A DNA stretch of 64,000 nucleotides from Bacteroidaceae bacterium (lineage in GTDB: Bacteria; Bacteroidota; Bacteroidia; Bacteroidales; Bacteroidaceae). Made by a program: the position numbers and the translations under genes. Positions 5,392 through 53,800 of this stretch are shown here, piece by piece; positions within the stretch are counted from its first letter, which is position 1; each line of letters starts with the position of its first letter. The notes beneath the pieces were generated by a model. The model was given only the letters and a program-made list of their open reading frames with translations, was not told where the DNA came from and searched no databases. The stretch lies in assembly GCA_017645655.1 (NCBI GenBank), contig JAGCNZ010000096.1, positions 24,187 through 88,186 of the forward strand. The letters are read 5' to 3'.

Positions 5392-6435
5392 CTAGTTATT
5401 CTCCGGCCTCAGTTTTCTTACTGTCTCAGCTGTTCTCCACATCTCCGAGTCGTGCAGGGCTGCCAGTTCTTTCTCGAGGCCTACGCGGTAGTCGGGCTTC
5501 GAGTTGGCATCGATGCTGATCTGCGCTTCGTTGCCGCTCTTTACGCTTGCGTAGAGCTGTTCTACGACAGGCTTGATGGCGTCGTGGAAGCGTGGGAACC
5601 AGTCGAGGGCACCACGCTGTGCTGTAGTGGAGCAGTTGGCGTACATCCAGTCCATTCCCTTCTGGGCGAAGAGAGGCATGAGGCTCTGTGTGAGCTCTTC
5701 GACGGTCTCGTTGAATGCTTCGCTGGGCGTGTGTCCGTTCTCGCGGAGCACTTCGTACTGTGCCAGGAGCAAGCCTTGGATGGCGCCCATCAGGGAGCCG
5801 CGTTCGCCGGTGAGGTCGCTGGTTGCTTCGCGCTGGAAGGTGGTCTCGAAGAGGTAGCCTGAGCCGATGCCGATGCCGAGGGCAAGCGTGCGGTCCAGGG
5901 CGCGACCGGTTGCGTCGTTGTAGACTGCATAGGAGCTGTTCAGGCCGCGACCTTCGAGGAACATGGTGCGCAGGCTTGTGCCGCTCCCTTTCGGTGCTAC
6001 CATGATGACGTCGATGTCCTTGGAGGGCACGCAACCAGTGCGGTCGTTCCATGTGATGGCGAAGCCGTGGGAGAAGTAGAGTGCCTTGCCGGGCGTGAGG
6101 TACTTTTGGAGTGTGGGCCATACGCTCATGACGGCTGCATCGGAAAGCAGACACATTACGATGGTGCCCTTGTCGGCAGCCTCTTCAATGGAGAAGAGTG
6201 TCTCTCCGGGCACCCATCCGTCGGCAATTGCTTTCTCGAATGTCTTGCCCTGGCGCTGACCAACGATGACGTTGAAGCCATTGTCGCGCAGGTTGCAAGC
6301 CTGGCCAGGACCTTGTACGCCGTAACCGATGACGGCGATAGTCTCGTCCTTCAGAATCTCACGAGCTTTCTCCAGAGGGAACTCTTCGCGTGTCATAACT
6401 TCTTCGATGACACCGCCAAAATTCATTTTTGCCAT
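5392..6435 (-). CDS. ilvC: Ketol-acid reductoisomerase
   Basis: 347 aa. Rossmann motif IAVIGYGVQGPGQACNLRDNG plus a KARI C-terminal knotted domain (LMPLFAQKGMDWMYANCSTTAQRGALDW). Confidence 0.95.
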   Translation of the reverse strand: MAKMNFGGVIEEVMTREEFPLEKAREILKDETIAVIGYGVQGPGQACNLRDNGFNVIVGQRQGKTFEKAIADGWVPGETLFSIEEAADKGTIVMCLLSDAAVMSVWPTLQKYLTPGKALYFSHGFAITWNDRTGCVPSKDIDVIMVAPKGSGTSLRTMFLEGRGLNSSYAVYNDATGRALDRTLALGIGIGSGYLFETTFQREATSDLTGERGSLMGAIQGLLLAQYEVLRENGHTPSEAFNETVEELTQSLMPLFAQKGMDWMYANCSTTAQRGALDWFPRFHDAIKPVVEQLYASVKSGNEAQISIDANSKPDYRVGLEKELAALHDSEMWRTAETVRKLRPENN

Positions 6436-6644: not shown

Positions 6645-6830
6645 TTTTGGCGGGCGCTACGAAATCTTTTGGCGGGCGCTACGAAATCTTTTGGCGGGCG
6701 CTAAAAATACACGAGGCACGTTAAGTCTCCCCACGAGACACGTTGGAATGCCCATCGCAACACGTTATGTTGCCAAACTAAACGTGCTAAGTTTACAAGT
6801 CTGCCGTGTTAAGTTCTTGCTCCTCACGGG
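6645..6830. repeat. Phased 22-bp repeat array, locus A2 (degenerate CACGTT/AACGTG cores plus a perfect 22-bp triplication)
   Basis: ttttggcgggcgctacgaaatc occurs at 6645-6666 and 6667-6688, with a partial copy at 6689-6703. It is followed by CACGTT 6717, CACGTT 6739, CACGTT 6761, AACGTG 6781, GCCGTG 6803 and CACGGG 6825. The CG dinucleotides are spaced 22/22/20/22/22. Confidence 0.7.
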
Positions 6831-7116
6831 CTGGATACTTTCGATGGAACCAGTATAATCCGTAGGACAAGGCAAGGAGACTTACTATGATAATAGCTGA
6901 TTGGGGGATGTTGCCCAGCCCGTCGAAGCTTTCCTCGACGCTGTCGGGCAAGAGGAGCGCGGCGGAGTTGATTGCGACATGAGCCACGATGCCTGGAATC
7001 AGGCTCTTTGTTCGCCAACACAGCCAGCCAAGCATTATGCCATAAAGCGTGCCGAAAACCATTTGGTCGGGGTTCATGTGAATCGCTCCAAAGATGAGTG
7101 CCTGACGACTCATCAC
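6793..7116 (-). pseudogene. N-terminally truncated CPBP (CAAX) intramembrane protease remnant
   Basis: The 107-aa ORF keeps CPBP motif 2 (FGAIH) and motif 3 (HVAIN) but lacks the EExxxR motif 1 and the upstream TM helices. Its 5' end abuts the AT-rich island and its 3' end runs into array A2. Confidence 0.5.
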
Positions 7117-7586
7117 CCACTCATCACCCTTGTATTCTGCTGGTATTCATTGTCTTATATAGGCTCGGTGACGAGTGACGAGTGTTTTTGATTTCAATTT
7201 CAGCATTTTTCTTGGACTTTTCTTTGTAGGTATTGCTTTTTTTTCGTATTTTTGCAGCAGACTCGAATAGCTCGAAAGGGTGGCGGGTCGAAATCTTAGT
7301 GGAAAAAGGACGTTTACGAACGTTATCTTCGGTGTCCAAATCTCGCAAATTTGCATATCACCTAGAAGATGCGCAACCGAAACGTCCACATTGGGTGTAT
7401 TGTACCCTGTTCTTTATTTGAATGGTGTCAATATATCTCGGCGTGGGCTATCTCGAGTTGCTTATCCTAGGTGAGGGCAATGCGAGAGCCTGGACGCGGG
7501 ATAAGCTAAGTAGAGCACCCACGTCTTTCCATTTAACAACATTAACCGCTGAATCTGGTGTGCTATAGGCAGAAGGAACAACGCGT

Positions 7587-7943
7587 ATGGCAGATAAAAT
7601 AGTTGGAGAGCCAGATAGGCCTTTTGTTAAGGGTTCATCTAAACCAAAGGAAGAAGAAGTGCTAGAGACAAAACTTCGCTCAATGATTACTTCCAATCTT
7701 ATATTTAAAGAAGGAAATAACGTTTTGAATGTTGTAGATATTAAACTAAAAGAATATTTAAAGCATAAACGTATAGATGGTCCGCGTGGAGATTATAATT
7801 ATGAGTTTGAAGGGGATGCTGATATTGGCATTAAAGTTCCCAATGGTGTTTCTTATACCCTTCATAGTTTTAGAGGTTACTTCCTGTCGGATGACGAAAA
7901 AGAAATCAACTCGTTGTTTGATGAAATCCAAATAACAAAATAG
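7587..7943 (+). CDS. Hypothetical protein, upstream partner of the HEPN-like ORF
   Basis: 118-aa ORF with an ATG start. Its stop lies 3 nt before the next ATG. I recognise no family. Confidence 0.4.
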   Translation: MADKIVGEPDRPFVKGSSKPKEEEVLETKLRSMITSNLIFKEGNNVLNVVDIKLKEYLKHKRIDGPRGDYNYEFEGDADIGIKVPNGVSYTLHSFRGYFLSDDEKEINSLFDEIQITK

Positions 7944-7946
7944 ATA

Positions 7947-8417
7947 ATGGCAAAAGTTATTAGACCCAAACGTTCGGCAACATGTATCTTTGATGAAAAG
8001 GATGTTTATTCCTTTTATGAAAACATATTGCTTGTTTGCGAAAGCGATAGAGTGGCATATGGTGATGAGAAAATATTGACTGCTGCTGCAAAGAAAATAA
8101 ATGCAAGCACGCCATTTGGCTTCGTTTATAAAAACTATGAGGTTAAGATGCAAAATCCTGTAGACAATGTGTTCTATTTTTCTGCTAATGCTGCCAAACA
8201 AAGTTCAACAAGACATACTATGATTGTAAAGAAATGGTATAAACATTTGAGAAATGCTTTTGCACACAACTACATTCGTTTAGACAATGGAGCATATGTG
8301 TTTGAAGATTTTTATGATGACACGGGCTCTCCGCTGCAACAAGTCTTATATGCAAAAATAGTAAATCTTGATGATTTCAAAAGGTTGATAACAGAAGTTA
8401 AAGCTAATTTAAAATAA
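7947..8417 (+). CDS. Small HEPN-like protein (R-x4-H motif)
   Basis: 156 aa. WYKHLRNAFAHNYI (codons at 8250-8267 give R102 and H107) matches the hRNxxAH signature of Abi2/AbiD-type HEPN domains. The family assignment rests on this motif only. Confidence 0.45.
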   Translation: MAKVIRPKRSATCIFDEKDVYSFYENILLVCESDRVAYGDEKILTAAAKKINASTPFGFVYKNYEVKMQNPVDNVFYFSANAAKQSSTRHTMIVKKWYKHLRNAFAHNYIRLDNGAYVFEDFYDDTGSPLQQVLYAKIVNLDDFKRLITEVKANLK

Positions 8418-8423
8418 GAAGCA

Positions 8424-11400
8424 ATGAAACGATTAAACATTACTTTCTTTCTCACCCTGCTCATGAGCATGATAAGCATAAAATCAAATGCTTATGATTT
8501 TGAAGTTAATGGAATCTACTACAATGTTGTTTCCATTGAGGATTTGACATGCGAAATAGCCCCTCAATCTAGCAATCATAGTTATTATTCTGGGTATTTT
8601 GTTATTCCGAGTAATGTACAATACAATGGAAAAACATTGAAAGTAATAAGAATTGGGGATTCTGCTTTCTCCATCAGTTCGATTACTTCTGTGACCATCC
8701 CAAACAGCGTGACGAGCATCGGCAAGTATGCCTTCTCTGATTGTACTGGCATGACCTCCATCAATATCCCCAACAGTGTGACGAGCATCGGCGAAGCTGC
8801 CTTCATTAATTGTTCCAGCCTGACCTCTGTTAACATACCCAACAGTGTGACAAGCATCGGCGGATTTGCTTTCGAGGATTGCACCGGTCTGACCTCAATT
8901 ACCATCCCGGGCAGTGTGACCAGCATCAATAACAATGCCTTCCGTAATTGCACCAGCCTGACCTCCGTCACCATCCCTAGCAGCGATGTCAGCAGCATCA
9001 TCGGGGCAGAAGCCTTCCGTAATTGCACCAGCCTAACATCTATCAATATCCCAAATGTAACATTGATTGGCGCTAGCGCATTCTACGGTTGTACAGCGCT
9101 CACCACCTTGAATATGTCAAATGTTGAAGACATAGGCGAAGATGCTTTCCGTGGCTGTACGTCTATTCACACATTGACAATACCTTCTTCATGTAAGAAA
9201 ATTAAGCACCGCGCATTCAATGGTTGCATAATTCGCAAACTTGTATTGGAAGACTCAAGTAACACATTAAAGCTAGGCTTAAGTGGCTGGCGTCAAGAAA
9301 ATTATGCTGATGAAATTTATTATAAAGACCTCTTTTCTCATTCACAGGTTGACACTCTTTATTGGGGGAGGTCCATTGACATAAACTTCAGCTATGCTAA
9401 TCCTTTGTATCGGGATTATAATGTGCCGGGTATTTTTGGTAATCAAATAAAAAAAATAGTAGTAGGCAACCAGATAACAGATAATGACATTTATAAAGGT
9501 TATTCATCTTCCTTATTTAATTTTAATGGTAACTCAGAACGTCCTCTATATTATAACATCACATTTGGCAAAGGTATTTCAACAGTTCCAAATATGTCAT
9601 ATGACGATAATTTGGATAGTCTGTTCCTTTTAAACGAGACTCCACCGAATGCAAAAGGGTTTTCTAACAAACAATATCTCCATTGCAATTTATTTGTTCC
9701 AAAAGGCAGCAAAACAGCATACCAATCTGCTGATGTATGGAAGAATTTTTGGAATATCCTAGAGTTTGATCCTTATGCGATTTCTTTTGCCGATGCCAAG
9801 GTAAAAGCTATCTGCGTAGCCCAATGGGACACTGACGGTGATGGTGAGTTGAATGAATCTGAAGCTGCTGCAGTTACGGATTTGGGAACAGCATTTAAAA
9901 GTAAGACATCTATTACCTCTTTCAACGAGTTGAAATATTTTACAGGGTTAACAGTTCTTGGTAATGATGCTTTCTCTGGATGCATAAGTCTTACCTCTAT
10001 TGCAATTCCACCTTCTTTGACGAGAGTTAAAACTGGAGCATTTAAGAATTGCTCCTCACTCGCAAAGATTATTGTGACGGATATTGCTGCATGGTGTGGC
10101 ATTATATATGAAGGAAATAGCTATAGTAATGGAGATTTTCCTCTTAACAAAGCTCAGCATCTTTATAGCGATGAAAACATTGAAATAACAAATGTGGTCA
10201 TCCCTGAAAGTGTGACGAGGATTGAACCTCTTGCTTTCCGCGACGCAAAATACATTACTTCAGTTACGATACCTAATAGCGTAACTTACATTGGACGAGA
10301 AGCATTCAGAGGTATGCATCGTTTGACTTCAATCAATATTCCTTTGGGAATTACATCTGTTGAACCATATGTGCTTCAAGATTGTGAAACATTAGCCTCC
10401 GTCAGCATTCCTGAAAGCGTGACAAGCATCGGTGACAATGCTTTCGCTAAATGCTATGGATTGAAAAATGTATATTGTTACTCGGAAGGCGTCCCCAGTA
10501 CTGGCAGTAATGTTTTCAGCAATACAAACGTTGGGGCTGCAACGCTCCATGTACCTGCTGGTTCTGTAAGTCAATACAGAACAACTTCGCCTTGGAGTGG
10601 CTTTGGTACAATTGAAGCTTTAGAAGGAGTTCTTGCCACAGGTATCTCTCTTAACCAGACAACATTGTCATTCAATGCTCCCAATCAAACAGCGACGTTG
10701 GCGGCAACAATAACACCCTCAAATGCCACGAATAAAAATATTACTTGGACAAGTAGCAATACTGCTGTTGCGACTGTCAGCAATGCTGGTGTTATAACTG
10801 CCATCGCAAATGGAATGGCAACCATTACCGCTAAAACAACAGATGGTACGAACCTCACAGCAACCTGTGAGGTTACAGTTTCAATACCTGTTCTTGCTAC
10901 AGGCATCTCACTTAACCAGACAACATTGTCATTCAATGCTCCCAATCAAACAGCGACACTGACTGCAACAATAACGCCCTCAAATGCCACGAATAAGACT
11001 GTTTCTTGGACAAGCAGCAATACTGCTGTTGCGACTGTCAGCAATGCTGGTGTTGTAACTGCCATCGCAAATGGAACGGCAACCATTACCGCTAAAACAA
11101 CAGATGGCACGAACCTCATAGCAACCTGTACCGTGATCGTCAGCGAGGTAATTCGCATAAACATTGTTACATCCAATGCTGGCTATTCTACATTCTATGA
11201 TTCACATTACGATTATGTTTTGCCCAATGGCCTAACAGCACAAGTAGTTACGAATGTATCCAATAACAAACTCGTATATAAGACTATTGCTAATGGTAAT
11301 ACTTCAGGAATTGTACCAAGAGGTACTGCAGTTATGCTTGTTAGTGACAACAAACGCTATGGTACATTTGCATTAACTTCTACAGCAAGTAGTGCCCCTT

Positions 11401-11768
11401 ATTCTGGTGCGAATCTTTTACATGGCAGTGATGTGGCAACAAGGACTACAGGAAATGGGTATCACTACAAGTTAAGTTATGGTAAGACAGGAACATCATG
11501 GAACGATGTGTTCGGATGGTATTGGGGTGCACAGGATGGTGCCCCGTTCCAGATAGAAAGCAATAAAGCATGGCTTGTTGTTCCTCAGTCCGCAATAACC
11601 CGTGCATCTGCTGGATATACTATAGATGGTGATGCGACAGACATAACAGATATCGAATTAGACGACGAAAAATGTGACATTTATTATGACATGCAGGGAC
11701 GTCGCATAAGTACACCTTCGAACAGAGGAATATATATAAAGAATGGTAAGAAAGTTGTAATCAAATAA
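8424..11768 (+). CDS. BspA-type leucine-rich-repeat surface protein with two Big_2 domains and a T9SS C-terminal sorting domain
   Basis: 1114 aa with a signal peptide. It has two blocks of 23-aa LRR_5 units (IPNSVTSIGxxAFxxCTxLTS), an EF-hand/dockerin-like WDTDGDGELNESE, two Big_2 repeats, and the C-terminus IYYDMQGRRISTPSNRGIYIKNGKKVVIK. Confidence 0.8.
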   Translation: MKRLNITFFLTLLMSMISIKSNAYDFEVNGIYYNVVSIEDLTCEIAPQSSNHSYYSGYFVIPSNVQYNGKTLKVIRIGDSAFSISSITSVTIPNSVTSIGKYAFSDCTGMTSINIPNSVTSIGEAAFINCSSLTSVNIPNSVTSIGGFAFEDCTGLTSITIPGSVTSINNNAFRNCTSLTSVTIPSSDVSSIIGAEAFRNCTSLTSINIPNVTLIGASAFYGCTALTTLNMSNVEDIGEDAFRGCTSIHTLTIPSSCKKIKHRAFNGCIIRKLVLEDSSNTLKLGLSGWRQENYADEIYYKDLFSHSQVDTLYWGRSIDINFSYANPLYRDYNVPGIFGNQIKKIVVGNQITDNDIYKGYSSSLFNFNGNSERPLYYNITFGKGISTVPNMSYDDNLDSLFLLNETPPNAKGFSNKQYLHCNLFVPKGSKTAYQSADVWKNFWNILEFDPYAISFADAKVKAICVAQWDTDGDGELNESEAAAVTDLGTAFKSKTSITSFNELKYFTGLTVLGNDAFSGCISLTSIAIPPSLTRVKTGAFKNCSSLAKIIVTDIAAWCGIIYEGNSYSNGDFPLNKAQHLYSDENIEITNVVIPESVTRIEPLAFRDAKYITSVTIPNSVTYIGREAFRGMHRLTSINIPLGITSVEPYVLQDCETLASVSIPESVTSIGDNAFAKCYGLKNVYCYSEGVPSTGSNVFSNTNVGAATLHVPAGSVSQYRTTSPWSGFGTIEALEGVLATGISLNQTTLSFNAPNQTATLAATITPSNATNKNITWTSSNTAVATVSNAGVITAIANGMATITAKTTDGTNLTATCEVTVSIPVLATGISLNQTTLSFNAPNQTATLTATITPSNATNKTVSWTSSNTAVATVSNAGVVTAIANGTATITAKTTDGTNLIATCTVIVSEVIRINIVTSNAGYSTFYDSHYDYVLPNGLTAQVVTNVSNNKLVYKTIANGNTSGIVPRGTAVMLVSDNKRYGTFALTSTASSAPYSGANLLHGSDVATRTTGNGYHYKLSYGKTGTSWNDVFGWYWGAQDGAPFQIESNKAWLVVPQSAITRASAGYTIDGDATDITDIELDDEKCDIYYDMQGRRISTPSNRGIYIKNGKKVVIK
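8686..9180 (+). repeat. Tandem 69-nt (23-aa) LRR coding repeats
   Basis: At least 7 consecutive units of the form S(V/I)(T/N)IPNSVTSIG..AF..CT.LT. Confidence 0.8.
10629..11151 (+). repeat. Near-identical 261-nt tandem duplication encoding two Big_2 domains
   Basis: gttcttgc(c/t)acagg(t/c)atctc...aaccagacaacattgtcattcaatgctcccaatcaaacagcgac occurs at 10629 and again at 10890. The protein copies are VLATGISLNQTTLSFNAPNQTATL(A/T)ATITPSNATNK... Confidence 0.85.
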
Positions 11769-11782
11769 AGACAGACAGAAAT

Positions 11783-12196
11783 ATGAAAAACATTAAACAA
11801 TACTTAATGGCTGGCATGGCTATACTTATGCTGACAGCATGCCCAAGTGACCCGGAATCGGAAACGCAATCATATACGCAGAACATTGTGTTGCCGTCAA
11901 ATGCATCTGAACAGGAAGTTACGTTAACACAACTGCATTCATCTATTTCAAATGTACAAAACCCTGTTTCTTGGTTAACTGTGGAGATTCAATCCTATTC
12001 CTCAGGATCACCCAAATTCAAACTCCGCTCAGCAAGCAATACAGAGAGGACTGAACGTAAATGTAACGTCATAATCACAGCTTATTCAGGTGACAAGGTT
12101 ACTCTATCCGTAACACAGCAAGGTGTCGCTGAGGGAACAGGGATAGATGACTTGCACGACTCACAGACAGACAAACCTGCATATCGCCGCCAATAA
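11783..12196 (+). CDS. Small lipoprotein, BACON-like domain
   Basis: 137 aa with lipobox LTAC. The pattern EQEVTLTQ...WLTVEIQ...KCNVIITAYSGDKVTLSVTQQG resembles BACON/Ig-like lipoprotein domains. Confidence 0.4.
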   Translation: MKNIKQYLMAGMAILMLTACPSDPESETQSYTQNIVLPSNASEQEVTLTQLHSSISNVQNPVSWLTVEIQSYSSGSPKFKLRSASNTERTERKCNVIITAYSGDKVTLSVTQQGVAEGTGIDDLHDSQTDKPAYRRQ

Positions 12197-12416
12197 AAAT
12201 TATCCGCTATTCTGATGGAACGACAAGGAAGGTCTTGGTTAAGTGAGAGCAGAGTCAAACTCGTTTGAATTCTGCCGAGTGGGAAAGAGTTCGACAAAGT
12301 CAAGGTTTTGATTAAATAAAAGCCTCCTCTCCCAACCTTCCTCCGTCGCAAGCTCCCCAATTGCTCCGCTATCAACGGGCAATTGCCTCCGAGGAGGAAA
12401 GGAGGAGAATAAGAAA

Positions 12417-12450
12417 GGGCATTACCGATTGGTAGTGCCCTCTTCTTTTT
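12417..12450 (+). terminator. Rho-independent terminator closing the island operon
   Basis: Stem gggcattacc / ggtagtgccc (one G-U pair) followed by tcttctttttt. Confidence 0.5.
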
Positions 12451-12585
12451 TCACTCTGCCACCACTATCGGATGGATTTCGAAGAGATTGACGGCACAAC
12501 TGTTGTCAAACAGATTGAATCCTCTTCTTCTGTAGATAACCAAATAATGGGAAAGTATACAGTTCTGAGACTTCCATGATATAAT

Positions 12586-13335
12586 TTATCTCCAGCAGAC
12601 TTTTGCCTGGCAGACGACATCAGATTCATTTTTGCGAACTTCGATATCGGTTTCGTTGTCGTCGATGATTTGCTCGTAGAAGCTGAGCTTGTCGCCCAAG
12701 TAGGACTCTGCCTTGTAGGCTATCTCGAAGCGGCGGATGCTCTGCTGCTCGAAGCGTTGGCGAGGGAAGAGGTCGAGGATGTGCTCTATGTACTTGATGC
12801 TGTTGATGTGTCCGTTGATGTCCACGTCGCTGTAGTACGTGTCGATGGTGCGGACAAGTTGTGGCTCGCGGAAACGGAAGCGGCTATGTCCCTCGATGGG
12901 GCAAAAGCCCTCCTCCTCGGGCACTACATAGTTGAGGATGTCTCCGTCGTAGAGTGTGAGCAGGTCGCAGGGCTTGCGTGTCTCGAGGTCTATCATGGCC
13001 CAGACGCTTCTGGCATATCCGAGGGGCTTTCCTTCGGCATTGAGGATGGAGAAGTTGCGATTAGTAAAGAGTTTCATCACGCTCTCCACCCACGTTCGAA
13101 CCTCGCAATGCTCGTACTGGCGAGGCATCTCCATCATCTCGATACTGAGCCGCGAGAGCACCCAGGTGTGTCGCGTCTCGTTCAGGGCACCGATGCCCCA
13201 GCCGCGCCTCTGCGAGTGATCGCCGGCAGCATTGAGCAAGTGATTGCCAAGTACGCCGAGGAAGATGCGTCCCGTGAAGTCAACATGGAAAGGCTCGACA
13301 TAGAAGGGGTAGCTATCTATTAATTCATAATTCAT
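12586..13335 (-). CDS. Acyl-ACP thioesterase
   Basis: Double hot-dog thioesterase. PFYVEPFHVDFTGR and the second-half DINGHINSIKYIEHILD are typical of the family. The track start at 13344 is TTG; the ATG at 13335 (MNYELIDS) is preferred. Confidence 0.8.
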   Translation of the reverse strand: MNYELIDSYPFYVEPFHVDFTGRIFLGVLGNHLLNAAGDHSQRRGWGIGALNETRHTWVLSRLSIEMMEMPRQYEHCEVRTWVESVMKLFTNRNFSILNAEGKPLGYARSVWAMIDLETRKPCDLLTLYDGDILNYVVPEEEGFCPIEGHSRFRFREPQLVRTIDTYYSDVDINGHINSIKYIEHILDLFPRQRFEQQSIRRFEIAYKAESYLGDKLSFYEQIIDDNETDIEVRKNESDVVCQAKVCWR

Positions 13336-13407
13336 AATTCTCAATTCATAATTATCTTCTTCGCGGAAACTCAGGGCGTTGCCTAATTGTGCATTACGAA
13401 TTATGCA

Positions 13408-14235
13408 TTACGAATTGCCATTGTGTTCTTCCTCTCGCTTTGCGATATAGGCATCAAGGCGCTCTATGCAGGACTTGGTAACCGCAATGCGGCCTGTGCG
13501 GACGAACTGCAGGACGCAACCCAGGGCATCGAGCCTGGTGAAGAGTTCTATCACATCTCTCGTGATGCCAGTGTTCTCGACAATGGTGTAAGTGGGATTC
13601 ACTTCGACGATGCGAGCATCATATTGGCGGACGATGCAGGAAATGTCTTTGTTGGCAAGCACCATCGGTGTGGAAAGCTTCAGCAGAGAAGTCTCGAGAA
13701 TGAATATCTCGTCGTCGATGAAGCAGTTGGCCTGCAGGACATCGACCTTCTTCTCGATTTGCTTGGTCAGCATCTCTGCCATTTCCTGCTTGCAGTAACA
13801 AGTGATGGTGTACTTATGCACGCCAGGTGTGGAAGAGGCACAAACATTGAGGCTCTCGATGTTGACTTGTCTGCGGGTGAAGACGGCGGTTATCTGATTG
13901 AGGATACCTGCGAAGTTCTCGGAATAGACGATGAGCGTGTAGAGTGTCAGGCCATCGTGGCTGAGCAATGCACCTTCGCGACCAGGCACGGCAGGCCGCG
14001 CCACTGCATTACGCTTGAAGGTCTCCTTCTGACCGCCTTCTCGTGCATCTTGAGCAAGAGTTGCCTTGCGCTGGCGAGCCAGGTTCTTCTCAAAGCTGTC
14101 GCGCTCAATGGCAGCAGCAGCATAAACGGCCTCATTGAAGCCCTGCATCTCCTTTGCCTGCTCCAAATCGTCACACTTTCCACATGTATTGCAATCGCCG
14201 CATTCAGCAGCACCTGTTTTCTTCTCTGTCTTCAT
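13408..14235 (-). CDS. ilvN: Acetolactate synthase small (regulatory) subunit with an N-terminal extension of about 95 aa
   Basis: ACT domain YTLIVYSENFAGILNQITAVFTRRQVNIESLNV begins near residue 97. The ATG at 14235 lies 23 nt after the ilvB stop and no in-frame ATG lies near the ACT domain. Confidence 0.8.
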   Translation of the reverse strand: MKTEKKTGAAECGDCNTCGKCDDLEQAKEMQGFNEAVYAAAAIERDSFEKNLARQRKATLAQDAREGGQKETFKRNAVARPAVPGREGALLSHDGLTLYTLIVYSENFAGILNQITAVFTRRQVNIESLNVCASSTPGVHKYTITCYCKQEMAEMLTKQIEKKVDVLQANCFIDDEIFILETSLLKLSTPMVLANKDISCIVRQYDARIVEVNPTYTIVENTGITRDVIELFTRLDALGCVLQFVRTGRIAVTKSCIERLDAYIAKREEEHNGNS

Positions 14236-14258
14236 AACTATGAATTATGCATTATGAA

Positions 14259-15962
14259 TTATGAATTGATTTCCAGCAGCATTTCGTCCACATTGGCTCC
14301 GGGAGGAGTCATGGGGAGCACGTTGTCTTCTTCCTTCACAGCACATTGCAGGAGGTACGGACCTTCGGTGCTGAGCATCTCTTTGATGGCAGCATCGAGG
14401 TCTTTGCGGTCAATCACAGTGCAGCAGGGAATGTTATAGCCCGCGGCAATCTTCTCGTAGTCGGGATTGAGCATTGGGGTGAAGGAGTAGCGTTTGTTGA
14501 AGAACATGTATTGCCACTGGCGGACGTTTCCGAGGAAGTTGTTGTTCAGGAGTATCATCTTCACGGGAATCTGGTTCTCCATGATGGTGCCCAGTTCCTG
14601 AATCGTCATTTGGAAGCCTCCGTCGCCACAGAACATGCAGACCGTCCTGTCGGGAGCACCGTAGCAGGCACCCATAGCTGCAGGTATGCCGAATCCCATA
14701 GTGCCGCAACCGCCGCTGGTAACGACTGAACGAGGCTTCGTGAACTTGAAGTAGCGACAGCCCATCATCTGGTTTTGTCCGACGTCGGTCACAAGGATGG
14801 CTTTATTCTTTGCTGCTTCGCTGACCTTGCGCACCACTTCGCCCATCAAGAGCGGGCCTTCCTTTGGGTTGAGGGCAGCATCGATTACCTTCGTGTATTC
14901 CTTTTCTTCGTAGGGCTTAAAGCCTTCTATCCAAGCTTTGTGAGTAGCCTTTTCCACAAGCTTTGTGACAGCAGGCAGCGTCTGTTTGCAGTTGCCGAGG
15001 ACCGAGAGCGTGGGCTTCACGTTCTTACCAAGCTCAGAGGGATCAATCTCGAAGTGTATGATCTTTGCTTGCTTGGCGTATGTCTTCAGGTTGCCAGTCA
15101 CGCGGTCATCAAAGCGCATGCCAACTGCAATGAGCAAGTCGCACTGATTCGTCATCACATTCGGAGCAAGGTTGCCGTGCATGCCAAGCATTCCCTTATT
15201 GAGCGGATGGTCGGAAGGAGCCGCAGACAGGCCGAGGATAGTTGAGCCAAAAGGTATTTGAGCTTTCTCGCAAAGGTCAAGCAGTTCCTTGTTCGCTCCA
15301 GCGAGTTCTACGCCTTGACCAACAAGCATGAAGGGCTTCACGCTCTCGTTAATCATCTGAGCCGCCTTCTCGATAGCGCCATCTTCAGGTTGCGGATAGG
15401 GATTGTAGCTACGGATGAAGTCGACCTTCTGCGGAGCGTACTCAATCATGGCAGTCTGCGCATTCTTCGCGAAGTCGAGCACCACAGGACCAGGCCTTCC
15501 GCTCTTAGCAATGAAGAAGGCTCGTGCCACTGCCCAGGGGATGTCTTCAGCCCTGCGAATCTGGAAGTTCCACTTCGTGATAGGCTGTGTGACGCCCACC
15601 ACATCGACCTCTTGAAAAGCATCCGTGCCGAGCATTGCTGCCCCCACCTGTCCGCAGATGACGACCATAGGAGTCGAGTCAATCATGGCATCTGCAACGC
15701 CTGTGATTGTGTTCATTGCTCCAGGTCCACTTGTCACGATAGCGCAGCCCACCTTGCCGCTGACGCGGGCATAGCCCTGAGCAGCATGGACAGCAGCTTG
15801 TTCGTGACGGACAAGGATGTGATGCAAGGTCTTCTTGTGGTCGTAAAGTGCATCATAAGTAGGCATGATAGCGCCTCCCGGATAGCCGAAGAGCACATTT
15901 ACACCTTCATGTTCGAGGCTTCGCATCAAAGCCTCTGCACCGCTTATCTTATTAGAATTCAT
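14259..15962 (-). CDS. ilvB: Acetolactate synthase large (catalytic) subunit
   Basis: 567 aa. ThDP motif CGDGGFQMTIQELGT...LLNNNFLGNVRQWQ and N-terminal GYPGGAIMPTYDAL. Confidence 0.95.
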   Translation of the reverse strand: MNSNKISGAEALMRSLEHEGVNVLFGYPGGAIMPTYDALYDHKKTLHHILVRHEQAAVHAAQGYARVSGKVGCAIVTSGPGAMNTITGVADAMIDSTPMVVICGQVGAAMLGTDAFQEVDVVGVTQPITKWNFQIRRAEDIPWAVARAFFIAKSGRPGPVVLDFAKNAQTAMIEYAPQKVDFIRSYNPYPQPEDGAIEKAAQMINESVKPFMLVGQGVELAGANKELLDLCEKAQIPFGSTILGLSAAPSDHPLNKGMLGMHGNLAPNVMTNQCDLLIAVGMRFDDRVTGNLKTYAKQAKIIHFEIDPSELGKNVKPTLSVLGNCKQTLPAVTKLVEKATHKAWIEGFKPYEEKEYTKVIDAALNPKEGPLLMGEVVRKVSEAAKNKAILVTDVGQNQMMGCRYFKFTKPRSVVTSGGCGTMGFGIPAAMGACYGAPDRTVCMFCGDGGFQMTIQELGTIMENQIPVKMILLNNNFLGNVRQWQYMFFNKRYSFTPMLNPDYEKIAAGYNIPCCTVIDRKDLDAAIKEMLSTEGPYLLQCAVKEEDNVLPMTPPGANVDEMLLEINS

Positions 15963-49257: not shown

Positions 49258-50151
49258 ATGCGAAAACTTCTCACATCTTCCCTTTTCCTCTTGACGTCCA
49301 TCCTCTACGCGTACGATGTAGAGGTGGACGGCATTTGCTATAACCTCCTTGGTACGAGCATGGCGTATGTCACCTACAGAGGTGGCGACATGTTCGAGCC
49401 GAATGGTTATTCCGGGGATGTCGTTGTGCCGTCACATATTGTCCACAACGGTTTCACCTACCGCATTTTTAATGTCGGCCCCAGTGCATTTGCCGATTGC
49501 GAGGGGCTGACGTCTGTCCAGCTGCCTTCTACGGTGCGAGGCGTCAGTGGAAGTGCGTTCCTTGGGTGTACCAACCTTCGTCAAGTCGCATTGCCGAGCG
49601 ACCTGCTTGGCTTGGGAGGCAGCGTTTTTGCGGGTTGCACGTCTCTGCAAGAGGTGTCTCTGCCGCGCCGTCTGGATGAAGTTGACACGCTGATGCTCTA
49701 TTGCTGCGCATCCCTGACATCGGTTGTCTTGCCCCATCGCGTCCGCAGAGTCTGCCAAGGGTCGCTTGTGCATCTGCCCTCGATGAGGCATCTCTACGTC
49801 TTTGCCTCCACGCCGCCTACGGCAGATCAGGGTGCCTTCACGCTGAAAGACCAGCAGCATTGCACCCTTCACGTCCCGCGAGAAGCCCTGCAGCAATACA
49901 AGCAATCGCCCATCTGGCGTGAGTTCTATCGCATCGTGGTGCTGGGCGACGCGGATTATGCTGCGCATGATTATCAGCGTGGCGACATCAACGATGATGG
50001 CAATGTGGACGCCGAGGACCTTGCTTTGCTGCGTCGCATCGTTGTCAGCCTGCCCGACGATTCAGCCGTACGTTGGGCAGCCGACATCAACGGCGATGGC
50101 AAAATCAATTCAGTTGATTACGTTTTGTTGTCGAAGAGCATTGGCGAGTGA
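49258..50151 (+). CDS. BspA-type LRR protein with C-terminal dockerin-like module
   Basis: 297 aa with a signal peptide. LRR_5 units (SAFADCEGLTSVQLPSTV...), and two EF-hand-like dockerin repeats DINDDGNVDAEDLALLRRIV and DINGDGKINSVDYVLLSKSI. Confidence 0.75.
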   Translation: MRKLLTSSLFLLTSILYAYDVEVDGICYNLLGTSMAYVTYRGGDMFEPNGYSGDVVVPSHIVHNGFTYRIFNVGPSAFADCEGLTSVQLPSTVRGVSGSAFLGCTNLRQVALPSDLLGLGGSVFAGCTSLQEVSLPRRLDEVDTLMLYCCASLTSVVLPHRVRRVCQGSLVHLPSMRHLYVFASTPPTADQGAFTLKDQQHCTLHVPREALQQYKQSPIWREFYRIVVLGDADYAAHDYQRGDINDDGNVDAEDLALLRRIVVSLPDDSAVRWAADINGDGKINSVDYVLLSKSIGE

Positions 50152-50336
50152 GTTGCCGCACGGCAACATACGAGTTTTCCAGGGCTGATTGCTCTTTGCT
50201 CCCTCGGAGCGAATCTCGTTGCCCAGGGACTGATATTCGGTTCACCCCATAGGTGGACCTTTTTGTCCTGTTTGCATTTTGTAACAAAAAGCATTCTTTT
50301 GCTTTCTTTTTGCTGTTTTTGCACACAACGTAACGT

Positions 50337-50480
50337 GCCGAAAAATGCGTCGAAACAGGGCAGATTTTCTGTTGCGGCGTGCTGTGTCGGAAAATATGGC
50401 ACGTTATATTTGAAATATTACACGTGATGTTTGAATTTTCACTACGCTGCGATTGCGGAAACGACACGCCAAAAAGTGTG
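50337..50480. repeat. CACGTG-core phased repeat array, locus A6 (degenerate edges)
   Basis: Cores AACGTG 50342, GGCGTG 50386, CACGTT 50410, CACGTG 50431, CACTACG 50450, CACGCC 50475. The CG dinucleotides are spaced 44/24/21/22/22. Confidence 0.7.
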
Positions 50481-50752
50481 CAAAAACGAGCAAAAATGAC
50501 TGGTTTTGCCAGGTGGAGATGGCAATTTGTCCATTGAAGATTGAAAGTCGAAGATGTGATGCGGCTGGTAACAGCCTGATACAGAATCGATTCTAAAACA
50601 CTTTCGTTCTAAGCGCTTCTTTTTATAAAAAGGTACAAAAGTGCCTCCGAGGGGATTTTAGGCGATTCTGGCGAGTCGGTCAAAAATGTGTGTGTAAGCA
50701 AAATGGTGAAAAAAGAAGCAAAGTGTCAGAAGCGTCATAATGAATCTTGGCG

Positions 50753-50792
50753 CGCGAAAAGCGGCAGGTTTGCATTGGAGCAAGCCTGCCGC
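50753..50792 (-). terminator. Hairpin plus T-run after the CotH/T9SS gene
   Basis: The minus strand reads GCGGCAGGC-ttgctccaatgcaa-ACCTGCCGC, followed by TTTTCG. Confidence 0.45.
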
Positions 50793-50853
50793 TATGTCGT
50801 TCTATGCGTGGCGTCACATTTTGTGTCGTCTCATCTCGCTCGCCCTCAGGGCG

Positions 50854-53800
50854 TTACTTTACCTTGACAAAGCGCTTTTGTCCACCCACAATGTAGATTC
50901 CCGTCTTTGTGATACGGTCGATGCGGGTGCCGCTGAGGGTGTAGATGGGCGCTTCCTCCAGGTCCTCGAGCCTTGTGGCAATGCCATCAGCATCGTCGAA
51001 GACGCTGACCGTGGCAGTTCCCTTCTTGTTGGAACCGTCGGTAGCCTTGGCGGTGATGATGGTCGTGCCGGAGGACAGGGCAGTGATAATGCCTTCGTCA
51101 ACCGTTGCTACCTCCTCGTTCGAGCTCGTCCAGGTGAGTGTCTTGACGGTTGCCGCCTCGGGCAGGATGCTGACGAGCAGCGTCGTATCGTTGCCTGCCA
51201 GCATGTCGATGACGTTCGGGCTCAGCTCGATGGAGGTGACGTATGTCTTGGCGAGGGTGACGTCGTATTCCACATCGCTTGCCCTCGTGCATATGCCATC
51301 TGCAGTAGCGAAGCACTGATTGCGTATTTGGTAGGTTCCTCCAGCGAAGTTATCTGCTCCGGCCAGGGTGAAGGTGAGGGCAGTGCCCGTCGTGGCACCG
51401 AGGTTCTCGTTGCCTGGAGCGTAGACGATGATGTGTGCTCCGTTAAGCATCGGGAGGCAGATGGTGTTGTGAGCAGCCGTGTTGACTCTCGTGTTGAAGT
51501 CGAGACTGCCTTGCTGTATCGATAGGCCTTGCGAGAGGATGATGTCAGCTTCGTAGGCTGTCGCGGCTCGGCTCGTGTTCAGCCATACCGTCACCTTGCG
51601 TGTGCCGCTGGCTTTGACGGATGCATTGCTTGAATAGAGCGTTGCCTCGAGTTCCTGGGTGCCGAGCGGCACCTCGTTGAGGATGCGACGTACCGTGACG
51701 ACGTCTGCCACGTCGATGCGGCTGTCGAGGTTGGCATCGGCATTGATGACTTCGAATCCCGCAGGCTCGTCTCCCGTCAGGTACGCCGCTATCCATTCGG
51801 CATCCGTCTCGTCGAGCACTCCATTGCTGTTCACGTCGCCAGCCAGGTTGCTCACGTTGTAGTAAACGCCCGCATCGTTCTTAAGTACCACGAGGTGCGT
51901 GGCATCGAAGGTCGGATAAGCATCCTCGCCAAGCGTCTGATACCAGATGGGCTCCAGGGTTATGCCGTTGTTGAGCATATAGCAGAGTTTGCCGCTTGTC
52001 ACGTCGTCGCTGGTGATGCGGTTCACCTGCGTGGTCGACGTGCTGTAGCAATTCACGGCGCTGGCTCCTCCTCTGTAGAAGTCGTTGCGGTAGTTATAGC
52101 CTTCCACGGTGCCGATGTTGTAGCAGTTCTGTAGCGTCGCGTTTGTTCCCATCCATCCACAGATGGCTGCGCTCTCGCTGCTGCCGCTGACGTTGCCAGT
52201 GTTGTAGCAGTTGTAGAAGAAGAATGTGCTGACTGCACCCTTGTTGCAGCCGATGATGCCGCCCGCATTGTAACCGCTTGCCGTCACGTTAGCCTCGTTG
52301 CCCACGCGCGAGAAGGTCACGTTGCCTGCCGTCGTGGAACCGCCTGCCAGCCCGACATAATTGTTTCCCTCGATGGAGCAGGTGCTGTCGAGAATCAGGT
52401 TGCTGATGGACGCGCCTCCACCCACAGCGCCGAAGAGGCCAGTGTAGTCTCCTCCTGTGACATGTAGGTTGCTGATGCGATGCCCTTGTCCGTCGAAGAG
52501 ACCACGGAAGGGCCTCGAACTGGTGCCAATCGGCGTGAACTGATCATTGTAGTCAGCCATGTCGATGTCGTTCTCAAGATATGCGTTGCTGTACTGCGCA
52601 CCTTCCGCAACGGCCTCGGCAAGCTCGATTATCTGCTCGGGCGATGTGATGAAGTATGTGGAGTCGGTGTAAAGCGTGCCCGGGTTATAGCCGAGGTAAT
52701 TGTCAATCCAGTTCAGTCGGGTAGGGATGTAGCTGCGTAGCACATCCACTTCCGCCTCGAAAGAACCGAGCGCGGAAACGTTCTGGTGAACACGTTGATT
52801 GAGGATTGGCCATCGAATGAAGTTGAGGTTAGCGGACGCTTCTATCTCCGTTGCCATGCTGTCGACGTAGTCCACGAGCGTCTTCTCATCAAGAGAGCCT
52901 TCCTTTCTATTGTCCCTCCACAACTGATTGAGCATTTGGTCTGCAGCACCGTCGCTGAGGACGCGGTTGACAAACGAACGCATGTCGCCCGCACAACTGC
53001 CGCCACGGAATGCCCAGTCGCTGCGTCCGTTGACTGGATAGATGCGTTCGTCGTTGTCGAATGCCAGGTCGAAGTCCCAGCAGGGAGATACATGGAACTG
53101 ATCCTCCAGGCGCTCCTTATACATGTACGTGCTCCAGTAGGTGTCCATGTTGCCCGAGAACTCGCCAACGATGAAGTGCTTGAGGAACGACTCCACGTCG
53201 AGATACTTGCGGAAACCGTTTTCCGGGTCGGTATAGTTGCTTGCAAAGAGAGCTGACTCCATCAGGTTGAAGTGCCCCTTGATGTAGTTGTGCTGCTCTG
53301 TCGTGATGTCGTCGTCGCCCGGGTGCTTGATGGTTACCGGGTTGCCCCGGTTGCTGCTGAACCAACTCGTCTCCTGGCTGGCGTATGCATCAACCTCGAC
53401 AAGATAGCCACCGGTCAGCATCGGCTCTTCGATGTCGTCGGGCGTCATCTCTGTGATAGGCACACGATGCGGGTCCACGGAAATCTGGTCGCAGAGCTGG
53501 TAGCAACCCTTGTATTCGCCATTCATGATGACGTCCACGGGTTGTGCCCACGGCGTGTATGGCAATCCCAGACGCTTGCTCACCTCGAAGGCAAGGCAGT
53601 TACGCATGAGAGTCTTGTCGCCGTAGTTGTTGATGAGCGTCCACTTCTTGGCTTTCGCCGGACTCTCCATTGCCGAACCTCTAAGCATGTGATGGCTCTT
53701 GCCGTCGGCAAACTTAATGCGCCACGGCTTCTTCGGGAAACCCCAGGATGCGTTGCCTCTGCCTCGAGCTGTGATGGGATACTCCTGGATGCGGGTGCCA

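Follow-up and report, generated by a model that had tools for sequence, protein, structure and literature searches.

The window analysed here is a 64,000-nucleotide (nt) stretch of contig JAGCNZ010000096.1 from a Bacteroidaceae bacterium, in which two small open reading frames (ORFs), ORF1 and ORF2, lie at the front of an AT-rich island (GC 0.34-0.43 across ~7400-12500 as compared to 0.50-0.57 in the flanks). An earlier note made from the sequence had described these ORFs, separated by 3 nt, as a two-gene cassette and a candidate toxin-antitoxin or defense pair. The coordinates, the 3-nt spacer and the GC dip agreed with that description and both genes were present, but the operon contains four genes and a leader, and ORF3, ORF4 and the leader had been overlooked. 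Positions 7223 to 12451 form one horizontally acquired AT-rich transcription unit comprising a promoter, a leader, ORF1 to ORF4 and a terminator (Table 1). ORF1 and ORF2 are the front end of this horizontally acquired four-gene surface-protein operon and not a free-standing toxin-antitoxin pair. Across the lineages that carry relatives of ORF2, the conserved unit is the leader RNA, a variable small ORF, ORF2 and an exported LRR_5 protein.

Table 1. Features of the AT-rich unit and its surroundings in the window, and the compared copies of ORF1.
Feature	Position	Strand	Description
Promoter, Bacteroidetes-type	7223-7254	+	TTTG at 7223-7226, 20-nt spacer, TATTTTTG at 7247-7254
Structured leader RNA candidate	7258-7586	+	~330 nt
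Helix Pa	7308-7315/7380-7387	+	leader
Helix Pb	7326-7330/7365-7369	+	leader
Helix Pc	7440-7447/7518-7525	+	leader; followed by a U-rich tract, terminator-like
Helix Pd	7459-7468/7498-7507	+	leader
Helix Pe	7476-7477/7489-7490	+	leader
ORF1	7587-7943	+	118 aa, ATG start
ORF2	7947-8417	+	156 aa, ATG start
ORF2 motif			H100-x-R102-N-A-F-A-H107-N, end of helix 89-106; other conserved positions E32, N74, F76-S79, D121
ORF3	8424-11768	+	1114 aa, 6 nt after ORF2; exported BspA-type leucine-rich repeat (LRR) protein with two Big_2 domains
ORF4	11783-12196	+	137-aa BACON lipoprotein, 15 nt after ORF3
Intrinsic-terminator-like hairpin	12416-12451	+	11 bp, 6 G-C, plus T-run
ilvC (ketol-acid reductoisomerase)	5392-6435	-	left flank
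Rce1/CPBP C-terminal fragment	6793-7116	-	between ilvC and the island
Acyl-ACP thioesterase	12586-13344	-	right flank
ilvN	13408-14235	-	right flank
ilvB	14259-15962	-	right flank
ORF1, intact vs disrupted	L011:794-1156 vs L018:5788-6001		near-identical cassettes

ORF2 contains the stretch WYKHLRNAFAHNYI, which includes R102 and H107 and had been read in the earlier note as the R-x4-6-H signature of HEPN RNases. With 7 R and 3 H in 156 aa, we estimated that this spacing would be expected by chance in about 0.4 of ORF2-like sequences, so that the motif alone is no proof and conservation is the real test. Relatives of ORF2 were collected using a word-indexed search of 5.8 billion proteins, which gave 27 clusters, and an exhaustive HMMER profile search of 1.84 billion representatives, which gave 75 family proteins at E<=1e-3. 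The family so far amounts to ~75 representative sequences, mostly from rumen Prevotellaceae, and in a set of one genome per species (185,579 species) relatives were detected in 3 genomes, all of them rumen Prevotella/Prevotellaceae metagenome-assembled genomes (MAGs). Among the 23 close homologues H100, R102, N103, A106, H107 and N108 were invariant, as were E32, P71, F76 and F78-S79-A80, with N74 and Y77 nearly so. When the alignment was extended to 54 sequences, down to ~18% identity, R102 and H107 were the sole invariant columns and H100, N103, F105 and D121 remained more than 90% conserved. In the close homologues two further segments, ESD 32-34 and NVFYFSA 74-80, were also strongly conserved. 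The invariance of R102 and H107 lifts the motif above chance level, and the conservation of this pair that the earlier note had looked for was borne out in both the close and the diverse homologues.

Searches of the Pfam library (24,736 models) returned a single match for the ORF2 of the window, PF18736 (HEPN pEK499_p136), at 13.3 bits and E 0.07. The gathering threshold of this model is 26.6 bits, and by Pfam's own criterion ORF2 falls outside PF18736. The same model was picked up by 18 of 23 and 36 of 54 family members (best E 7.7e-6), and no other Pfam family gathered more than 5 members in either scan. The best score to PF18736 among individually scanned members was 21.2 bits, as compared to 168 bits for the authentic pEK499 protein. 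Profiles were compared using a pEK499_p136 alignment of 42 sequences (A4) built from the authentic pEK499 protein. Aligned to A4 with hhalign, the deeper ORF2 alignment (A3) gave a probability of 76% and an E-value of 2.3e-5 over 35 columns, which cover the helix preceding the motif, the motif itself and the next strand with its conserved Asp. A relaxed hhalign run produced a collinear full-length alignment of ORF2 and pEK499_p136 that was not significant beyond the 35-column core.

The AlphaFold2 model of ORF2 (predicted local distance difference test score (pLDDT) 88, predicted template modeling score (pTM) 0.85) has its main helices at residues 17-31, 42-50, 89-106 and 141-153, and in the model R102...H107 ends the third of these. 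Helices 2 and 3 are linked through a small strand/helix insert, helices 3 and 4 through a three-strand meander. In the analysis of the superfamily by Anantharaman et al. 2013 (PMC3710099), the Rx4-6H motif of HEPN domains falls where helix 3 ends or where the loop to helix 4 begins, helices 2 and 3 are frequently separated by inserts, and in Csx1 a beta-hairpin comes right after the motif. The ORF2 model agrees with all three of these points, that is motif position, helix 2-3 insert and post-motif beta element. Taken as a whole the model is alpha/beta with six beta-strands and no clean four-helix bundle. Of the four-helix HEPN fold asked about in the earlier note, the four main helices and the motif at the end of the third were seen, but the model was alpha/beta and Foldseek returned no HEPN structure.

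Several results weigh against a HEPN assignment. Every match of the ORF2 family to PF18736 was below the cut-off, the significant hhalign stretch was limited to 35 columns, and the shallower ORF2 alignment (A1) reached an hhalign probability of only 8% against A4. Foldseek searches with the ORF2 model detected no HEPN or other fold in the PDB (best E 0.18) or BFVD (best E 0.15), with template modeling (TM) scores of ~0.2, and profile searches of PDB sequences with the ORF2 family gave chance matches only. No significant match was found for ORF1 or ORF2 in PADLOC-DB v2, the defense-system library used here, NCBIfam or PHROGs. A PADLOC match to RmrA (13.5 bits, E 0.0056) and a PHROG minor-tail match (E 0.06) each covered a partial stretch and were treated as chance. 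Abi_2 was matched neither by the ORF2 of the window (E<=1) nor among the families listed for 54 members (E<=0.1), and no PADLOC Abi model matched, so that the Abi2/AbiD flavor named in the earlier note found no match in these searches. Its broader view of ORF2 as HEPN-like fared better, being favored by the invariant R/H pair, the recurrent PF18736 matches, the hhalign result and the motif at the end of helix 3, with the sub-threshold Pfam scores on the other side. Together these data suggest that ORF2 carries a HEPN-type domain, which we regard as probable by a modest measure. ORF2 likely belongs to the HEPN superfamily as a minimal and very divergent member, its nearest relative being the pEK499_p136 clade, and by analogy with other HEPN proteins it would most likely act as a metal-independent endoribonuclease.

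ORF1 is not a nucleotidyltransferase. No family match was found for it in Pfam, NCBIfam, PHROGs or PADLOC, and its model (pLDDT 79.7) shows a disordered N-terminus followed by one helix and a long curved beta-sheet, in line with the remark in the earlier note that ORF1 is not an obvious MNT partner. The best Foldseek matches were NTF2/SnoaL-like (E 0.017-0.05, TM 0.3-0.38), a resemblance of fold only. The ORF1 family consists of 5 clusters with 30 invariant columns, many of which fall in the N-terminal FVKGSSKP...E.LE.KL segment. Homologues of ORF1 were found only directly upstream of ORF2, in six distinct lineages, and LRR cassettes without ORF2 gave no ORF1-like protein at E<0.01. ORF2 is not tied to ORF1 in the same way, and about half of its lineages lack ORF1 or have something else in its place. 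Among the loci of the family, ORF2 stands without an ORF1 homologue in L004, L013-15, L019 and L021-23. The leader runs directly into ORF2 in L013-15, where a called 137-aa gene overlaps the conserved leader, and the slot is otherwise filled by unrelated genes, an 82-aa ORF in L004, a 70-aa ORF in L021-23 and a 117-aa ORF plus a lipoprotein in L019. In the L018 MAG, ORF1 is broken by an internal deletion and a frameshift beside an intact ORF2 that is identical to that of L011 at 167 of 168 positions. The L011/L018 pair is a natural knock-out of the putative antitoxin and, barring assembly error, ORF2 is tolerated without ORF1, which speaks against a classical obligate antitoxin. The proposal of a toxin-antitoxin or defense pair is supported in part and weakly, in that ORF1 occurs only beside ORF2, but ORF2 is often found without ORF1, ORF1 is broken in L018 and PADLOC gave no match; the co-occurrence of the two ORFs is one-sided.

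In all distinct lineages whose sequence extends far enough downstream, the gene after ORF2 encodes an exported protein. This protein is of the LRR_5 type in L001-3/16, L005-7, L008-10, L011, L013-15, L017, L018 and L021-23, the exception being L004, in which ORF2 is followed by a 201-aa exported protein. The junctions between ORF2 and the exported gene range from a 41-nt overlap to a 6-nt gap, with a 67-nt gap in L008-10, where ORF2 is truncated, and the adjacency of ORF2 and LRR_5 persists down to P0043, a protein 25% identical to ORF2. The chromosomal genes around the cassette differ in each lineage, so the cassette is mobile as a unit. MNT-HepT, DUF3990/DUF3791, ParE and integrase genes are neighbors of some ORF2 loci. 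L021:3024-5882 and L022:2785-4110 share the same left flank and ORF2; the LRR protein is 121 aa in L021 and 441 aa in L022/23, and downstream of the cut LRR gene of L021 lie HTH_17 and a tyrosine integrase. It seems that the L021 LRR gene was interrupted by an integrative element. L013 resembles L021 in carrying an LRR gene (345 aa), HTH_17 and an integrase N-terminal domain.

The ~340-nt non-coding region upstream of ORF1 (7240-7586) was conserved as nucleotide sequence. Positions 7240-7590 are kept at 67-80% nucleotide identity upstream of all ORF2 loci, even in L004 where ORF2 is only 39% identical. Further copies of this leader were detected with a degenerate core pattern in rumen and human-gut metagenome contigs (at least 120), plus 21 in IMG/VR contigs, and nhmmer gave a near-full-length match in almost all of them. 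At least 140 further accessory cassettes of rumen and gut Bacteroidales have this leader at their head. Using 79 distinct copies, RNAalifold predicted five helices with 32 pairs, 17 of which show compensatory changes. Pairing was intact in 95.1% of cells as compared to 45-58% when the partners were slid by 1-3 columns, and 128 double-sided changes were counted as compared to 43 +/- 5 in shuffled alignments (0/500) and 17-47 in slid ones. The abundance of G-U pairs indicates that the structure is specific to the + strand, the same strand as the genes, and the window copy has a minimum free energy z-score of -5.8. Hairpins of variable length sit between the conserved blocks, and the leader closes with an invariant GC-rich helix, GGCGTGGG/CCCACGYC, which is followed by a U-run (about 7526-7537) and resembles a terminator or attenuator. 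The TAnnTTTG box of the promoter was invariant or nearly so in the 79 copies, and the promoter boxes fit the Bacteroides -33/-7 consensus. A single copy of the leader is present within the window. Two copies ~1 kb apart on one contig (L101:12879-13188 and 13883-14238; L102) suggest tandem cassettes.

Rfam 15 contains no match to the leader: at gathering thresholds the window gives a tRNA and nothing else, and an E-value scan of 7000-7700 gave three chance-level matches only (E >= 2.4). A tRNA or known non-coding RNA at the island edge was rejected, the sole tRNA of the window lying at 63.4 kb with no Rfam match for the leader, and so was the FopS/GibS small RNA family of Bacteroides, FopS being a short single-stranded 5' region plus a terminator that is already in Rfam. 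The leader was not matched in GenBank phages or PLSDB plasmids, and a search of 200 of the 408 supplement files of PMC8040213 did not find it among the candidate RNAs listed there. Literature searches found no relevant link between HEPN and BspA and no described Bacteroidales leader of this kind. As far as the Rfam 15 and literature searches show, the leader is undescribed, and it is more novel than ORF2. A conserved integrase or regulator gene upstream of the leader was also considered and rejected, the 146 upstream ORFs falling into 112 clusters. The genes downstream of the at least 140 new copies are heterogeneous, LRR_5 being the commonest (27 loci), and include protein kinases and PP2C, Peptidase_C10 with an inhibitor, Sel1, radical SAM, Hsp70, DUF4007, NERD and ORF6N; a relative of ORF2 occurs in only 2 of these loci. 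Other cassettes have nothing between leader and LRR gene, or different small genes in that slot. In L072, L082, L093, L103 and L106 a 263-288-aa membrane protein with a weak putAbiC match (E 0.02) replaces ORF1-ORF2 in this slot. The diversity of the downstream genes and the lack of conserved upstream genes indicate that the leader is a generic head of accessory cassettes.

ORF3 matched LRR_5 (9.4e-96) and Big_2 (1.2e-25) in Pfam, has an N-terminal signal peptide as read from the sequence and is partly similar to the adhesin HupY/LrrG, far below the cut-off. A type IX secretion system C-terminal sorting domain was suspected by eye in ORF3; Pfam Por_Secre_tail gave no match and the domain is not claimed. 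ORF4 matched PF13004 BACON (E 2e-6, 28.1 bits as compared to a cut-off of 25), and its signal peptide ends in LTAC, a lipobox as read from the sequence. The hairpin after ORF4 is likely the end of both the operon and the AT-rich island. The island (~7240-12450) lies antisense between the acyl-ACP thioesterase gene and ilvC, splitting the ilvB-ilvN-thioesterase/ilvC cluster. The gene order on contigs with an identical ilvC is ilvB, ilvN, thioesterase, opposite-strand ORF4-ORF3-ORF2-ORF1, ilvC, and no empty site was seen, as 5 of 5 public contigs with an identical ilvC carry the island. The match of the 107-aa ORF between ilvC and the island to the Rce1/CPBP intramembrane protease domain is confined to the C-terminal half of the domain, and this ORF is probably the remnant of a gene at the left edge of the island. 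A second LRR_5/Big_2-like region lies at ~49300-51540, with 24-34% identity to ORF3 by tblastn and no leader nearby.

HEPN families are overwhelmingly conflict or defense RNases (PMC3710099). On this general biology, and on the conflict-like cargo of sibling leader cassettes, we tentatively propose that ORF2 may be a conditional conflict-type RNase, abortive-infection or stress-triggered, co-expressed in a mobile surface-protein cassette with ORF1 as a dispensable modulator, a reading that falls somewhat short of even confidence. Such a role is suggested because sibling cassettes carry NERD, DUF4007, kinase/PP2C, Hsp70 and ORF6N genes, because the recurrent pre-LRR gene weakly matches putAbiC, and because some ORF2 loci adjoin the MNT-HepT, DUF3990/DUF3791, ParE and integrase genes described above. 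ORF2 would ride in the cassette and be co-expressed with the surface proteins, whereas ORF1 would be no obligate antitoxin and may act as a dispensable modulator or inhibitor whose conserved disordered N-terminal peptide would make the contact with ORF2. The terminator-like helix of the leader is probably the point at which expression of the whole unit is gated. Counting against this proposal, the ORF2 family was never found apart from a tightly coupled exported LRR-type gene. Autonomous defense and toxin-antitoxin modules normally swap neighbors freely, and such strict coupling argues for a function tied to the LRR-type gene.

An alternative, unlikely in our view but the foremost of those considered, is that ORF2 acts as a post-transcriptional regulator specific to its cassette, either an RNase or an RNA-binding protein, that would target its own operon RNA or the leaders of rival cassettes and so tune, or make exclusive, the expression of the adhesin-like LRR protein. 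The strict translational coupling to the LRR gene favors this explanation, with the exported gene following ORF2 at near-zero spacing or overlap in every adequately sequenced lineage down to 25% identity. The same structured leader always precedes ORF2 and is common to many other cassettes, which would give such a regulator a shared RNA target, and the tolerance of ORF2 without ORF1 also fits. UpxY and UpxZ, a pair of small regulators that head Bacteroides capsule operons, offer an analogy, but homology does not support it. The evidence for a regulator is confined to synteny, and descent of the whole ORF2 family from a single ancestral leader-ORF2-LRR cassette may be enough to account for it. 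The 27 new leader loci with LRR_5 and no ORF2 indicate that ORF2 is not needed for LRR expression generally, and the single leader copy in the window also counts against a regulator. Coupled to this idea is a broader one that we hold as a long shot: the ~330-nt element would be a new class of large cis-acting regulatory RNA that gates transcription of acquired cassettes with surface LRR adhesin, protease, kinase and defense-like genes in gut and rumen Bacteroidales, and ORF2 a HEPN RNase acting on the shared leader or operon RNA, by which one cassette would control itself or its rivals, setting an RNA-level hierarchy among mobile surface-protein cassettes.

It is also doubtful that ORF2 is no HEPN RNase at all and that H-x-R-N-A-F-A-H-N serves another catalytic or binding role in a new alpha/beta fold, for example in a cytoplasmic factor for maturation or export of the LRR protein. 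The confident model has no structural neighbor in the PDB or BFVD, its six beta-strands and the conserved ESD 32-34 and NVFYFSA 74-80 segments are not HEPN hallmarks, the sequence links to HEPN are all sub-threshold and local, and ORF2 is strictly coupled to an exported protein. Against this, the two sole invariant residues are the HEPN catalytic pair in canonical spacing and helix position, the same HEPN family was picked by 36 of 54 members out of all Pfam models, and pEK499_p136 proteins likewise have the motif followed by a strand with a conserved D. Least supported, and quite improbable, is a classical autonomous toxin-antitoxin module hitch-hiking in the island, in which a constitutively toxic HEPN RNase would be held by a protein antitoxin: the antitoxin-like gene order with its 3-nt spacer, the restriction of ORF1 homologues to the side of ORF2, a conserved disordered peptide typical of many antitoxins and slot fillers in L004, L019 and L021-23 that are compatible with antitoxin swapping all suit it, but L013-15 have no ORF between leader and ORF2, L018 keeps a near-identical ORF2 beside a disrupted ORF1, ORF1 has no MNT or other known antitoxin domain, and the ORF2 family never forms a free two-gene module away from the LRR gene.

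If ORF2 is a HEPN RNase, it would rank among the smallest and most divergent branches of the HEPN superfamily, a branch that Pfam, NCBIfam and PADLOC do not contain. It would also be the first case of a HEPN protein with an exported BspA-type LRR protein as obligate partner, in place of a nucleotidyltransferase, restriction-modification (R-M) or CRISPR partner. This linkage raises the question of whether a cytoplasmic RNase controls or protects a mobile surface-adhesin cassette. Among large regulatory RNAs the leader is a good candidate for a new class, in an abundant gut and rumen lineage, and it could account for the expression or silencing of AT-rich genes newly acquired by gut and rumen Bacteroidales.

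When compared to known systems, the leader differs from riboswitch-like leaders in having no Rfam match and in heading genes that share no pathway, so that no ligand is suggested. It resembles riboswitch-like and antitermination leaders, including the processive-antitermination RNAs EAR and put, in being promoter-proximal, covariation-supported and multi-helix, with a terminator-like helix and U-tract before long operons. The HepT-MntA (HEPN-MNT type VII) system and ORF1-ORF2 both have a small R-x4-H HEPN-type protein with a small gene upstream, but ORF1 is no nucleotidyltransferase and is dispensable. A weak HepT-like match was found in only 1 of 54 ORF2-family members, and a genuine MNT-HepT pair adjoins the L013 cassette, separate from ORF2. 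The HEPN domains of Csx1/Csm6 have the same kinds of insert as the ORF2 model, whereas ORF2 has no CARF domain, CRISPR context or detectable sequence or Foldseek similarity to them. As compared to pEK499_p136, the N-terminal halves do not align significantly, and ORF2 has the insert between helices 2 and 3 and the beta-meander after the H-x-R-N-x-x-A-H-N helix end. pEK499_p136 is found mostly in Proteobacteria and the ORF2 family in rumen Prevotellaceae. pEK499_p136 proteins are reported mainly beside R-M, ART/Macro, NamA or Pgl genes (PMC3710099), while the exported LRR partner and the structured leader belong to ORF2 and are not reported for pEK499_p136. The two proteins are alike in being single domains of 150-170 aa, in having a strand region with a conserved aspartate after the h-x-R-N-x-x-A-H motif, and in being encoded at the head of a small module of closely spaced genes, which in pEK499 includes a 257-aa protein of unknown function encoded 12 nt downstream.

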